This document shows positions 3,696-29,779 of a DNA stretch of 64,000 bases, one piece after another; the stretch's first letter is position 1; the number at the start of each line of letters is the position of its first letter. This DNA comes from Lachnospiraceae bacterium. Its GTDB lineage: Bacteria; Bacillota; Clostridia; Lachnospirales; Lachnospiraceae. A program made the translations under genes and the position numbers. Under the pieces are notes generated by a model that saw only the letters and a program-made list of their open reading frames with translations, was not told where the DNA came from and did no database searches. The stretch spans positions 22,100 through 86,099 of the forward strand of contig JAILOQ010000102.1 of the NCBI GenBank assembly GCA_024690725.1, in the 5' to 3' direction.

Positions 3696-4394
3696 TTATC
3701 TCTTTGTTTCTTTTCCGTAATATTTTCCGTAATACTTTCCGTAGTACCGTCCGTAATAGCTGTTTTGCGACATATCCACCTTGTTTAAGACGACACCGAG
3801 GATCCTTGCGTTTGCCACCTTTAACTGTTCTAACATCTTACGTGCGTAACGATAACTGATCTGGCCCGCACTCATTACCACGACCATGCCGTCGCAGACC
3901 TTGGAGATCACCGCGGCATCGATCACGCTCCCTAACGGGGGTGTATCGATAATAACGATATCAAATACCTGCTTTGCGTCTTTTATCAAGGTCGTAAAAT
4001 TTTTTCCGCCCAGTAACTCACTGGGATTGGGCGGCACCGGCCCCGCAAATGTCATGTAAAAGTTTTCTACATTCGTAGCACAGATGATATCCACCAATTC
4101 CTTCTTATACGCCAGACAATTCGTAAGTCCGTACCGGATCTTTCCACGTTTATGCCTGGCCTGCATCACGGATTTTCTCAGATCCGCATCGATAAGAAGT
4201 ACCTTTCTTCCCGCATCCGCAAACGAAAGAGCCAATTCATAAGAAACACTGCTCTTTCCCTCTCCGGGAGTTGCGCTCGTGATCCCGATCACCTGCGTTT
4301 CTTCTCCGGAAAATTCAATGTTTGTTCTTAATGTTTTAAAGGCCTCCTGGGCTCTGAAATCAAGTTCATCACGTTTAATCTCTATCGATTGCAT
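3696..4394 (-). CDS. CpsD/CapB-family bacterial tyrosine kinase (BY-kinase catalytic subunit)
   Basis: The protein has Walker A (TSATPGEGKS), Walker A' (LLIDADLR) and Walker B (IVIIDTPP). It also has a C-terminal tyrosine cluster, YYGRYYGKYYGKYYGK. An AGGGG SD precedes the ATG. Confidence 0.9.
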   Translation of the reverse strand: MQSIEIKRDELDFRAQEAFKTLRTNIEFSGEETQVIGITSATPGEGKSSVSYELALSFADAGRKVLLIDADLRKSVMQARHKRGKIRYGLTNCLAYKKELVDIICATNVENFYMTFAGPVPPNPSELLGGKNFTTLIKDAKQVFDIVIIDTPPLGSVIDAAVISKVCDGMVVVMSAGQISYRYARKMLEQLKVANARILGVVLNKVDMSQNSYYGRYYGKYYGKYYGKETKR

Positions 4395-26293: not shown

Positions 26294-26986
26294 ATGAAAA
26301 TAGAACGTATCAACGACAATCAAATCCGGTGCACTTTGACCGCAAAAGATCTTGCCGCGCGCAAGATCAAGGTAAGTGAACTGGCATACGGTTCCAGAAA
26401 GGCACGCAGTCTTTTTGAGGAAATGATGCATCAGGCCGAGGAAGAATTGGGCTTTACTGCCGACGACCTTCCTTTGATGATCGAAGCGATCCCGATCAAT
26501 GCGGACTGCATCGTATTCATCATCACACGTGTGGAAGATCCGGAAGAGCTCGATACCCGTTTTTCCAAGTTCATGCCTCAGGTAACCCGTGAAGAAGACG
26601 ACGAAGAAGATGACGAAGAGGAAATCTCTTCCACCTCCTTTGATGACTTTTTGCGCCGTGCTCTCGGTGCCGAAGAGGTCACGGAGCCCGTTACGGTTTC
26701 CGTTGCTTTCCGTTTTGCGTCCTTAAACGATCTGATCTTACTTGCCAACTCCCTTCCGGAGGAAGCGCCCTGCGACAGTGCGCTCTATAAGGATGAAGCA
26801 AGTCATGAATACATTCTCTATTTACCCGCGTTATCCGACGATGATACCGCGGATATCGAGCGCTTTTGCGGTCTGCTTTCCGACTTCGGAACCCCCGACC
26901 GTTCTCTTCGTGTGCTCAATCATCACACCCCGGGATATGAGTGTCTCATTCCCGTCCATGCTCTGTCCCATTTAAAAGAGCTCTAA
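26294..26986 (+). CDS. mecA: Adaptor protein MecA (ClpC/ClpE adaptor)
   Basis: The N-terminus MKIERINDNQIRCTLTAKDL matches the MecA signature start (B. subtilis MEIERINEHT...). An acidic linker and a C-terminal domain follow. Confidence 0.85.
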   Translation: MKIERINDNQIRCTLTAKDLAARKIKVSELAYGSRKARSLFEEMMHQAEEELGFTADDLPLMIEAIPINADCIVFIITRVEDPEELDTRFSKFMPQVTREEDDEEDDEEEISSTSFDDFLRRALGAEEVTEPVTVSVAFRFASLNDLILLANSLPEEAPCDSALYKDEASHEYILYLPALSDDDTADIERFCGLLSDFGTPDRSLRVLNHHTPGYECLIPVHALSHLKEL

Positions 26987-27025: not shown

Positions 27026-27054
27026 TTGCGATTGTCAATCTTTTAACCTATAAT
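27026..27054 (+). promoter_or_regulatory. Candidate promoter of the pfl locus
   Basis: TTGCGA-N17-TATAAT, about 95 nt upstream of the pfl ATG. Confidence 0.55.
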
Positions 27055-27149: not shown

Positions 27150-29189
27150 ATGAGACCAGAATGGACAGATTTTGTAGGCGGCAAGTGGGACAGAGAGATC
27201 AACGTACGTGATTTCATCCAGAGGAATTACACTCCCTACACAGGAGATGATTCTTTCTTAGCAGGACCTACACAGAACACAAAAGACTTATGGGATCAGG
27301 TACTTGATCTTCAGAAGCAGGAGCGTGAAGCAGGCGGTGTCCTTGATATGGATACCAAGGTAGTTTCTACCATCACCTCTCACGGACCGGGATATCTTGA
27401 TAAGAGCAAGGAGACCATCGTAGGTTTCCAGACAGACAAGCCTTTCAAGCGTTCCTTACAGCCTTACGGTGGTATCCGTATGGCAGAGAAGGCATGTGCC
27501 GACAACGGTTACACCGTAGATCCTGAGATCTCCGAGTTCTTCTCTACACACAGAAAGACACACAACGCAGGCGTATTCGATGCTTACACACCTGAGATGC
27601 GTGCATGCCGTACCGCTCACATCATCACAGGTCTTCCGGATGCTTACGGTCGTGGCCGTATCATCGGTGACTACAGACGTGTTGCTCTGTACGGTATTGA
27701 CAGATTATTAGAGGACAAGCAGGCACAGAAGGATTCCACCGGCGACGTTATGACAGATGATGTTATCCGTCTTCGCGAGGAGCTTTCCGAGCAGATGACC
27801 GCTCTTAAGATGATGAAGGAAATGGCAGCTTCTTACGGTTGCGATATTTCCAAGCCGGCAGCAAATGTTCAGGAAGCTATCCAGTGGACATACTTCGGTT
27901 ACTTATGTGCAGTTAAGGAGCAGAACGGTGCAGCAATGAGCCTTGGCCGTACTTCTACTTTCATCGACTGCTACGCAGAGAGAGATTTAAAGAACGGAAC
28001 CTTCACAGAGGAGCAGATCCAGGAATTCGTAGATCACTTCATCATGAAGTTACGTTGCATCAAGTTCGCTCGTACCCCTGAGTACAATCAGATCTTCGCA
28101 GGCGATCCGGTATGGGTTACCGAGTCCCTCGGCGGTGTTGGTATCGACGGACGTCCGATGGTTACAAAGATGAGCTTCCGTTATCTGAACACCTTGAACA
28201 ACTTAGGACCGAGCCCTGAGCCGAACCTGACTGTTCTTTGGTCCACCAGACTTCCGGAAGGCTGGAAGAAGTTCTGCGCTAAGATGTCTATCAAGACCTC
28301 TTCCATCCAGTATGAGAACGATGACCTTATGAGAGTAACACACGGCGATGACTACGGTATCGCTTGCTGCGTATCCTCCATGAGAATCGGTAAGGAAATG
28401 CAGTTCTTCGGAGCACGTGCTAACTTAGCTAAGTGCTTACTGTACGCTTTGAACGGCGGTATCGATGAGGTTACCAAGAAGCAGGTTGGCCCGAAGTATC
28501 GTCCGGTTGAAGGTGACGTACTTGATTATGATGATGTTTACGCTAAGTACATGGATATGATCGAGTGGCAGGCTAAGGTATATGTAAATACCTTGAACAT
28601 CATCCATTATATGCATGACAAGTATTGCTACGAGAGAGCTCAGATGGCTTTACATGACAGAGATGTTCGCAGATACTTCGCAACAGGTATCGCAGGTCTT
28701 TCCATCGTAGCCGACTCCTTGTCCGCTATCAAATATGCAAAGGTAGAAGTTGTTCGTGACGAAGACGGCATCATCGTTGACTTCAAGACGACCGGCGACT
28801 TCCCTAAGTATGGTAACGACGATGACCGCGTAGATGATATCGCTCAGGATATCGTTCACAAGTTCATGACAGCCGTAAGAAGACATCATACTTACAGAGA
28901 TGGTTTCCCGACCACTTCCATTCTTACGATCACATCCAACGTAACCTACGGTAAGGCTACAGGTAATACACCGGATGGTCGTAGAAAAGGACAGCCGTTT
29001 GCACCCGGTGCTAACCCGATGCACGGTCGTGATTCCCACGGTGCGGTTGCATCCCTTTCTTCCGTATCCAAGCTTCCGTTCAATGATGCACAGGATGGTA
29101 TCTCCAATACCTTCACCATCATCCCGGGCGCTCTTGGTAAAGAGGATCAGGTATTCGCAGGCGACATCGAGCTTGACTTAAATAAGTAA
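27150..29189 (+). CDS. pflB: Pyruvate formate-lyase (formate C-acetyltransferase) catalytic body lacking the C-terminal glycyl-radical domain
   Basis: The active-site Cys pair [12 protein letters not shown] is present and PFL-like sequence runs throughout. The ORF stops right after ...[23 protein letters not shown]. That point corresponds to the linker that precedes the Gly-radical domain in E. coli PflB (...NALGKDDEVRKTNLAGLMDGY...). Confidence 0.9.
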
Positions 29190-29213
29190 TTCACTACATT
29201 CGGAGGAGACGAT

Positions 29214-29417
29214 ATGGACGAAAATCAAATGGTTGAAGATTTGATCGCACAGTTGGACGGCGGAATGGCCAAAGGCACCGGACATGTGAATGTCGATGTC
29301 AACAGTTTGGCCGAAGGCGTGAAGAACGTTGAGACCATGGGCTGCGTTGATTGCAGCACAAACCCGATGGCTTGCAGCGTCCCTACGCTCCACGAAGGCT
29401 TAGACAAAGAAGAATAA
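29214..29417 (+). CDS. 67-aa ORF inserted between the PFL body and the Gly-radical module; a diverged half-copy of the radical module with a Cys-rich C-terminal part
   Basis: A strong SD (GGAGGAG) lies 5 nt before the ATG. Residues [23 protein letters not shown] align with [23 protein letters not shown] of the next ORF. The following sequence is [13 protein letters not shown] rather than RVSGYAV. Confidence 0.6.
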
Positions 29418-29434
29418 CAAAGGAGGTTTTTACC

Positions 29435-29680
29435 ATGGCAGAAGCTAGTGCAACACAGGTTGATAACTTAGTAAACTTATTAGATGGTTACGCAACAAAG
29501 GGCGGACATCATTTGAACGTTAACGTTCTTAACAGAGATACTTTATTGGATGCTCAGAAGAATCCGGAGAAGTATCCGCAGTTAACCATCCGCGTTTCCG
29601 GTTATGCAGTTAACTTCATCAAGTTGACTCCGGAGCAGCAGGCTGACGTTATCAGCAGAACATTCCACGAGTCCTTCTAA
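29435..29680 (+). CDS. Stand-alone glycyl-radical module (81 aa; GrcA/YfiD-like, equivalent to the PFL C-terminal domain)
   Basis: [59 protein letters not shown] is near-identical in pattern to the PflB/GrcA C-termini and includes the radical Gly in RVSGYAV. AGGAGG lies 8 nt before the ATG at 29435. Confidence 0.9.
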
Positions 29681-29703
29681 TTGGACGCAAAAGAATACAA
29701 ACG

Positions 29704-29739
29704 AAAGCCCTTCGTCATATGGCGAAGGGCTTTTCTTTA
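29704..29739 (+). terminator. Rho-independent terminator or attenuator after the Gly-radical module
   Basis: AAAGCCCTTCG-loop-CGAAGGGCTTT followed by TCTTTAT. Confidence 0.7.
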
Positions 29740-29779
29740 TGCTAGAATAAACGTATCAAAGAACGAAGGAGATAAGCCT

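Follow-up and report, generated by a model that had tools for sequence, protein, structure and literature searches.

A small acidic protein encoded between the body and the radical module of a naturally split pyruvate formate-lyase in Lachnospiraceae

No glycyl radical enzyme (GRE) is more widespread than pyruvate formate-lyase (PFL), which catalyses a central fermentation step in abundant gut Lachnospiraceae. Here, we describe a naturally split PFL from this family, encoded within a 64,000-nucleotide stretch of DNA from a Lachnospiraceae bacterium (GenBank assembly GCA_024690725.1, contig JAILOQ010000102.1, positions 22,100 to 86,099 of the forward strand), which is referred to below as the window. 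The enzyme is made from a 679-amino-acid (aa) body and an 81-aa glycyl-radical module of the GrcA3 type. Between the genes for these two pieces lies a further small open reading frame (ORF), here called ORF2. The evidence assembled below is best explained if ORF2 is a small, acidic, third component of the split enzyme.

The relevant background comes mainly from Escherichia coli, where the spare part YfiD (GrcA) can serve PFL. The first strand of YfiD duplicates strand beta10 of PFL (PMC8683613). After cleavage by oxygen, E. coli PFL keeps residues 696-733, which comprise beta10 and half of the glycine loop. YfiD binding and the installation of the radical both depend on these residues, which must nevertheless move out to admit the YfiD loop (PMC8683613). 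Free YfiD is not activated without an acceptor enzyme (PMC8683613). GrcA likewise rescues formate production in a strain carrying PflB G734A, whose radical domain is intact but radical-less (PMC12338860). A different kind of small partner is known from other GREs. According to a 2026 review, HPAD, BSS and MASS are the only GREs in which small subunits have been seen to date; the review lists spare parts only as add-ons to intact formate lyases and leaves split PFL unmentioned (PMC13450708). A full-text literature search returned nothing relevant on GrcA3 or on split PFL. A constitutively split PFL with a third, radical-less subunit derived from the glycyl-radical domain (GRD) is thus not described in the searchable literature.

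The split itself is simple. The body covers positions 2-665 of the 744 in the PFL model TIGR01255 (1098 bits), and the radical module starts at position 663 of the same model. The end of the body therefore meets the start of the module, as expected for a clean gene fission. Pfam recognises in the body a PFL-like domain and the first half of Gly_radical, and the active-site ACC lies at residues 405-407. The radical module scores 157.6 bits against the GrcA3 model NF038360 (cut-off 158), matches Pfam Gly_radical at 50-106, and aligns to PFL 682-758 and YfiD 66-126. In NCBI annotation, the radical piece goes by ‘autonomous glycyl radical cofactor GrcA3’ and the body by ‘formate C-acetyltransferase’. 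A scan of the window detected no terminator between the body, ORF2 and GrcA3 cistrons, which are consequently predicted to form one transcription unit.

The N-terminal half of ORF2 resembles the radical module encoded directly downstream. ORF2 residues 7-29 and GrcA3 residues 9-31 are identical at 11 of 23 positions. An initial annotation of this DNA, made from the sequence alone, had reported the same number of identities, but its ORF2 numbering (8-30) was displaced by one residue. The Smith-Waterman score of the pair (BLOSUM62) is 59, against 22.5 +/- 4.2 for shuffled sequences (z = 8.6). None of 20,000 shuffles reached it, and the kinship therefore survives the comparison with shuffled controls that the annotation had proposed. 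When profiles of 232 ORF2-family and 78 GrcA3-family sequences were compared with hhalign, ORF2 residues 3-33 aligned with GrcA3 residues 5-35 (probability 95.5%, E = 1.5e-8), and the alignment ended there. The ORF2 hidden Markov model (HMM) also matches GrcA3 ORFs, stand-alone GrcA3 genes and the same segment of unsplit PFLs. Alignment with the E. coli PFL structure sequence (1H16 numbering) equates GrcA3 residue 9 with PFL 682 and G56 with G734. By way of GrcA3, ORF2 7-29 thus corresponds to approximately PFL 682-709, which spans the helix and the barrel strand beta10 ahead of the glycine finger.

The pattern of conservation agrees with this assignment. In the 232-sequence family alignment, D15, G23, H24 and N26 of ORF2 are conserved at 92-97%. 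The most conserved N-terminal residues (L14, D15, G23, H24, N26 and V27) are also those conserved in GrcA3 and PFL (LLDG...GHHLNVNV), so that the PFL-conserved LxD, GH and NV are retained in the docking segment. The match of ORF2 to NF038360 is confined to residues 4-30 and is weak (14 bits against the cut-off of 158, E = 0.039), and ORF2 has no match to the NCBIfam models for GrcA and GrcA2 (TIGR04365, NF008341). The two family motifs, DDLVxMLDxGMxxGxGHVNV and C-x6-C-x-[VI]-P-T-[LF]-x-x-G-[LI]-D, are both present in the window copy. Judged by these alignments, the N-terminal half of ORF2 is a paralogue of the segment that builds the radical domain into the PFL barrel. The description of ORF2 as a half-copy of the radical module consequently stands, with homology limited to the helix and beta10 segment and with the radical glycine loop absent.

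The C-terminal half is a different matter. The C-terminal halves of ORF2 and GrcA3 are no more similar than expected by chance (4015 of 20,000 shuffles reach the observed score), and ORF2 has no RVSGYAV loop, no radical glycine and no C-terminal helix, which bears out the early observation that the sequence diverges after the strand. The CxxC...C motif highlighted in the initial annotation does exist in the window, as C44-x2-C47-x6-C54, but it does not hold as a family signature. Among the 232 family members, conservation is 0.88 for C47, 0.93 for C54, 0.95 for P57 and 0.86 for T58, and only 0.62 for C44 and 0.65 for G43. What is family-wide is the C-x6-C pair followed by x-[VI]-P-T. The poor conservation of G43 and C44 also argues that TMGC is not a radical site. 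Its interpretation as a degenerate glycine-radical loop was rejected, as no more than 62-65% of members keep these residues and several lineages have others in their place; the copy in locus L002, for instance, reads TFRSSDC.

Three other possible kinships of ORF2 were considered. One between its C-terminal half and the long linker of the unsplit PFLs L084 and L086 (see below), plausible on visual inspection, was discarded, as the ORF2 HMM matches only their canonical helix and beta10. The top hhalign match between ORF2 and the body, pairing 29370-29399 with the catalytic loop at 28362-28391, is not significant (E = 0.4, probability 0.15%). No similarity was found between ORF2 and the N-terminal 60 residues of E. 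coli YfiD, for which a partly confirmed sequence was used.

ORF2 is a real gene under purifying selection. An exhaustive profile search (E <= 1e-3) recovered 221 clusters at 50% identity, nearly all of 45-90 aa, while a word-indexed search returned 43 clusters with 56-97% identity, all of 54-73 aa. A 1035-aa protein with 14 repeats (P0185) is a spurious low-complexity match. The reading frame is intact in 70 of 70 copies from fetched loci, counting that of the window, and in 80 of 80 metagenome loci. Across 49 loci (Nei-Gojobori), the proportions of nonsynonymous and synonymous differences (pN and pS) are 0.22 and 0.79, giving a dN/dS of ~0.13, with synonymous sites saturated. Constraint is strongest in the C-terminal motif (residues 39-64, pN 0.124), intermediate in residues 1-30 (0.217) and nearly absent from the linker at residues 31-38 (0.54). 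Conservation among relatives that share the split, one of the checks first suggested for ORF2, is thus well documented, and none of the three grounds for refutation named in the initial annotation overturns the idea. Both the ORF and its strong Shine-Dalgarno (SD) sequence were confirmed as originally read, and an SD-like core precedes ORF2 in 57 of 66 distinct loci. The family has no model in Pfam or NCBIfam and no match in a PDB sequence search. Few copies bear a source name, and in every such case the label is ‘hypothetical protein’.

The gene is also tightly bound to one genomic context. This was surveyed in the best 80 genome loci seeded with GrcA3 and in 80 metagenome loci seeded with ORF2. 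In nearly every readable context, ORF2 is flanked by a PFL body of 678-687 aa and a GrcA3 of 78-89 aa, usually with the gene for the PFL-activating enzyme, PflA, next in line. Nine individual look-ups, among them the most divergent members of the family, gave the order body, ORF2, GrcA3. Carriers include Lacrimispora saccharolytica, with body homologue P0298. ORF2 lies directly upstream of GrcA3 in approximately 61 of the 80 GrcA3-seeded loci, behind either the body or a contig end that truncates it, and no split PFL without ORF2 was present among these 80. The ORF2-seeded loci are complete in 75 of 80 cases, with four cut by contig ends and one odd. The sole ORF2 copy without an upstream PFL body (L170:829-1026) has ribosomal proteins L29 and S17 in that place, on a contig of 1.3 kb and 1.2x coverage that was probably assembled as a chimera. 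Viral contigs yielded no copy of ORF2. The co-occurrence with split pfl genes that the initial annotation had proposed to examine is therefore strict in both sets of loci. ORF2 is found only in the three-gene split arrangement and is an unrecognised part of split PFL. Taken with the evidence for selection, it is very probably a genuine, PFL-specific accessory protein.

Related PFLs that are not split provide a useful comparison. Two such enzymes, L084:1829-4240 (797 aa) and L086:1886-4240 (775 aa), are 74-76% identical to the body, and neither has ORF2 beside it. Both carry a variable, acidic linker of 40-65 aa exactly at the fission point of the window gene, and the position of these linkers indicates that the fission site is a permissive insertion point. 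Natural fusions of the body and ORF2 were also sought among over-long body homologues. The two candidates, P0194 and P0203, proved to be internal duplications. P0203 (821 aa) ends in a different Cys-rich tail, ...GKEDMVMLDSISLDDLSFSLEPDCACCEPNLSVDEAE, and its internal duplication resembles an assembly artefact.

GrcA3 can also occur by itself. Seventeen GrcA3-seeded loci carry the gene as a stand-alone copy, without a body or ORF2 in the vicinity (L016, L021, L022, L031, L033, L044, L045, L051, L052, L055, L058, L065, L072, L079, L081, L082 and L087; the match lies at ~4001-4240 in most). In the four that were checked (L058, L052, L044 and L072), the gene is directly downstream of a Crp/Fnr-family regulator, and in L022, L081 and L082 it adjoins spoIIIAA. 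Two metagenome-assembled genomes hold an operon copy together with a stand-alone gene (L056 with L016, and L074 with L087). This suggests that stand-alone GrcA3 proteins are genuine spare cartridges that are controlled separately, possibly in response to redox state.

Codon usage separates ORF2 from its two partners. As first noted, the glycine codons of ORF2 are restricted to GGC (five) and GGA (two), with no GGT, and codon counts agree that the pfl ORFs are rich in GGT (30 of 56 glycine codons in the body). A codon score, defined as the log2 ratio of body-like to background-like usage, is +0.37 for the body and +0.39 for GrcA3. It is -0.50 for ORF2, -0.375 for PflA and -0.42 for the upstream gene MecA, and the remaining long ORFs of the window also score negative. 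When each locus was scored with its own body and PflA as references, ORF2 fell below GrcA3 in 38 of 38 loci. The codon style of ORF2 is consequently the ordinary style of the same genome, similar to that of PflA, and the departure from it lies with the body and GrcA3. We read the bias shared by these two genes as a putative mark of very high expression, and the codon data speak for ORF2 being less abundant than either. The initial annotation had offered two meanings for the difference, a separate origin or a different expression level. The second is the better reading, and the first is not sustained, as ORF2 scores like PflA and MecA. A foreign origin for ORF2 is unlikely given the match to the genome background, and it was ruled out on this ground.

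The positions of ORF2, its parts and the surrounding operon are collected in Table 1.

Table 1. Features of the split PFL operon and its surroundings, in window coordinates.
Feature	Position	Strand	Basis
MecA, upstream of the operon	26294-26986		Synteny
Promoter-like site upstream of the body, TTGCGA-17-TATAAT	27026-27054	+	Consensus match only, 10/12
PFL body, formate C-acetyltransferase without its last ~80 residues, 679 aa	27150-29189	+	TIGR01255, Pfam
SD sequence of ORF2, GGAGGAG, ATG 5 nucleotides further on	29202-29208	+	Sequence reading
ORF2, middle cistron of the split PFL, 67 aa, acidic (13 D/E against 3 K/R)	29214-29417	+	Homologues, dN/dS, constant context
ORF2 residues 3-33, paralogous to the GRD docking segment (helix + beta10)	29220-29312	+	hhalign, shuffles, 1H16 mapping
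ORF2 residues 39-64, conserved motif V-[EQ]-T-[ML]-G-C-x-D-C-S-x-x-P-[LM]-A-C-S-V-P-T-L-x-x-G-L-D	29328-29405	+	pN, column conservation
ORF2 C47 codon	29352-29354	+	Within the C-terminal motif
ORF2 C54 codon	29373-29375	+	Within the C-terminal motif
SD sequence of GrcA3, AAGGAGG	29420-29426	+	Sequence reading
GrcA3-type glycyl-radical module, 81 aa, RVSGYAV	29435-29680	+	NF038360, Pfam, structure-sequence alignment
Strong intrinsic terminator after GrcA3, 14-bp stem, 7 GC pairs, T-rich tail	29703-29744	+	Sequence scan
PflA, PFL-activating radical-SAM enzyme, 256 aa	29780-30550	+	TIGR02493, 293 bits
Small 2x[4Fe-4S] ferredoxin, 56 aa	30633-30803	+	Pfam Fer4

Several properties of the body and the flanking genes deserve mention. 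Body residues 668-679 (29151-29186) form an added 12-aa tail, VF[AS]GD[IL]E[LIV]DL[NS]K, which is conserved in 47 split bodies. The tail has no counterpart in E. coli PFL and a faint one in the unsplit L084 and L086, and it could offer ORF2 or GrcA3 a docking point. Four Cys or His residues (H398, C493, H580 and H625) are candidates for positions specific to split bodies, from a comparison that includes only two unsplit enzymes. The body and ORF2 share a reading frame, separated by TAA and eight codons, such that read-through would give a chain of 755 aa. The frame relation is random across loci (24/21/20), and the shared frame in the window is therefore a coincidence. The small ferredoxin is a frequent neighbour of the operon, found also in L001, L002 and L006, and could be the electron donor for PflA; its codon style is body-like (+0.23). 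Synteny extends across genera (the window, L002 and L004), with MecA upstream and the ferredoxin, a MerR-type regulator, DnaB and ribosomal protein L9 downstream.

How does ORF2 compare with the known partners of PFL? Like GrcA/YfiD, GrcA2 and GrcA3, it is small, copies a C-terminal segment of PFL that includes the beta10 strand (GxHxNV), and is encoded with PFL and PflA. By analogy with these proteins, it would be intended for a PFL that lacks its own radical domain. Unlike them, ORF2 has no glycine-radical loop or C-terminal helix and hence cannot carry a radical, and its C-terminal half is a novel Cys-pair motif. A second likeness is to the residues that E. coli PFL retains after oxygen cleavage, 696-733, which have been proposed as the element that YfiD recognises (Andorfer et al. 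2021, PMC8683613). These too are a radical-less beta10 segment that duplicates the strand of the incoming module, with a comparable length after the strand, and ORF2 may similarly occupy the site that an incoming spare part must take. However, the E. coli segment belongs to the PFL chain and arises by damage, whereas ORF2 is the product of a separate, dedicated gene with its own conserved tail, and a recognition role can be assigned to it by analogy only.

On the strength of this analogy with YfiD and cleaved PFL, we tentatively propose that ORF2 is a radical-less placeholder supplied in trans, and that it acts as the recognition element at the body's beta10 site. The helix and strand of ORF2 would dock at the same site on the body as GrcA3. 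ORF2 would thereby provide the missing beta10 strand and complete the barrel for as long as no intact radical module is in place, and its Cys-bearing C-terminal finger would fill or cap the empty glycine-loop channel leading to the active-site Cys pair. The body would thus be held receptive, like oxygen-cleaved PFL. Once GrcA3 binds and is activated by PflA, ORF2 would be moved aside or released. Such a cycle would permit cheap replacement of oxygen-damaged radical modules, including replacement from stand-alone GrcA3 genes elsewhere in the genome. In terms of the E. coli system, the body alone would resemble the poorly accepting tPFL (residues 1-695), its combination with ORF2 would be akin to the well-accepting cleaved PFL, and GrcA3 would be the equivalent of YfiD.

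Of the roles considered, that of a plug or placeholder appears the most economical from the sequence. The low codon score of ORF2 fits a recycled, sub-stoichiometric factor. Structure prediction of ORF2 alone gave a helix at residues 3-19 and a poorly defined remainder, with a predicted local distance difference test (pLDDT) score of 57, and the docking segment of GrcA3 predicted alone remained below a pLDDT of 50. These low-confidence isolated predictions fit segments that fold on docking. In a variant that we consider possible but doubtful, ORF2 would be a ‘dummy cartridge’ whose Cys pair caps the catalytic Cys-Cys, perhaps through a shared metal or thiol contact, and so licenses the activation of GrcA3 in situ. 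The filling of half of the sites, with ORF2 on the radical-free protomer, was set aside, as it is disputed whether PFL shows half-site reactivity in vivo at all (PMC12338860).

Several considerations weigh against the placeholder proposal. The docking site, the competition with GrcA3 and the displacement step are all inferred. Codon usage reflects abundance only indirectly; the SD sequence of ORF2 is strong, and its predicted transcript is shared with two genes that are read as very highly expressed. The C-terminal motif, which is the most conserved part of ORF2, is explained only loosely by a placeholder. In E. coli, moreover, tPFL is folded and active without any placeholder (PMC8683613), and a stabilising role is therefore not obviously needed.

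The main rival idea is that ORF2 is a permanent accessory subunit, which would remain bound alongside GrcA3 in the active enzyme, hold a metal through its Cys pair, with His/Asp or body residues, and serve a structural or regulatory role. Small subunits are an established concept among GREs (PMC13450708), and like the beta and gamma subunits of BSS, the beta, gamma and delta subunits of MASS and the gamma subunit of HPAD, ORF2 is small, contains Cys and is encoded with the catalytic subunit. The strong constraint on C47, C54 and their surroundings would suit a metal site, and in this clade a third Cys (C44) together with H24 or H60 might complete it. ORF2 is invariably flanked by two stoichiometric partners on a single predicted transcript and has a good SD sequence, and the conserved extra tail of the split bodies could hold a partner. 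However, the small subunits of BSS, MASS and HPAD are HiPIP-like or rubredoxin-like, with four-ligand sites of 4 Cys or 3 Cys and 1 His, and they are not homologues of the radical domain. ORF2, a GRD paralogue associated with PFL, has no such set of conserved ligands, and its two family-wide Cys would not suffice for a [4Fe-4S] or rubredoxin site within ORF2 itself. No similarity to subunits of these types emerged from sequence searches of Pfam, NCBIfam and PDB. The analogy to Fe-S small subunits (BssB/BssC, HpdC) raised in the initial annotation is accordingly weak. Further, the homology of the helix and beta10 predicts GrcA3's own site, which argues against simultaneous canonical binding, and a stoichiometric partner sits poorly with a codon style unlike that of the body and GrcA3 in every locus compared. 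A permanent subunit is thus rather unlikely.

An alternative in which ORF2 controls the radical is less probable still. It might present GrcA3 to PflA or withhold it, as a safeguard against the activation of free GrcA3, or it might use its thiols to quench the glycyl radical under unfavourable conditions, in the manner of a deactivase. Free YfiD is a poor PflA substrate in E. coli, where activation is licensed by the acceptor enzyme (PMC8683613). The conserved thiols of ORF2 lie beside a GRD-like docking segment, and its PflA-like codon style suggests a catalytic or regulatory factor of low abundance. Against this, no sequence feature of ORF2 points to PflA, nothing in it resembles the RVxGY recognition peptide, and PflA is not always beside the operon (it is not in L004, L005 and several other loci). 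The remaining two readings are contradicted by the data. Closeness to a radical-SAM gene might suggest that a small Cys-containing ORF encodes a peptide precursor of the SCIFF, sactipeptide or ranthipeptide-like type, modified by the neighbouring enzyme. This is very improbable: that enzyme is a canonical, equivalog-level PflA rather than a SPASM-type maturase, and Pfam reports for it only the radical-SAM core and Fer4_12, ORF2 has just two or three Cys and no NCBIfam match to precursor families, its N-terminal half is homologous to a structural segment of PFL, and its linkage is to the body and GrcA3 rather than to PflA. Finally, half of ORF2 recognisably duplicates the 5' part of the neighbouring gene, and no curated family covers it, as might be expected of a functionless chance ORF or of a decaying remnant of a partial duplication during fission. 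The chance of this is almost negligible, since ORF2 is intact in every fetched and metagenome copy, is constrained at the protein level across a large family with a conserved SD sequence, and is better conserved in the half that is not duplicated.

If the dummy-cartridge variant is correct, protein-radical cofactors would have in ORF2 their first dedicated placeholder or exchange subunit, which would represent a natural, separable version of the YfiD recognition step. For E. coli YfiD, it is an open question how a spare-part module identifies its acceptor, pushes out the resident strand and is rendered activatable (PMC8683613). In the split enzyme, the three actors reside on three polypeptides that can be separately mixed, titrated and mutated, making the question directly testable. 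The ORF2 family is a new one for annotators to name, and the arrangement to which it belongs is widespread in important gut anaerobes, including many gut Lachnospiraceae. These observations also have a bearing on oxygen tolerance and on the economy of repair in strict anaerobes.

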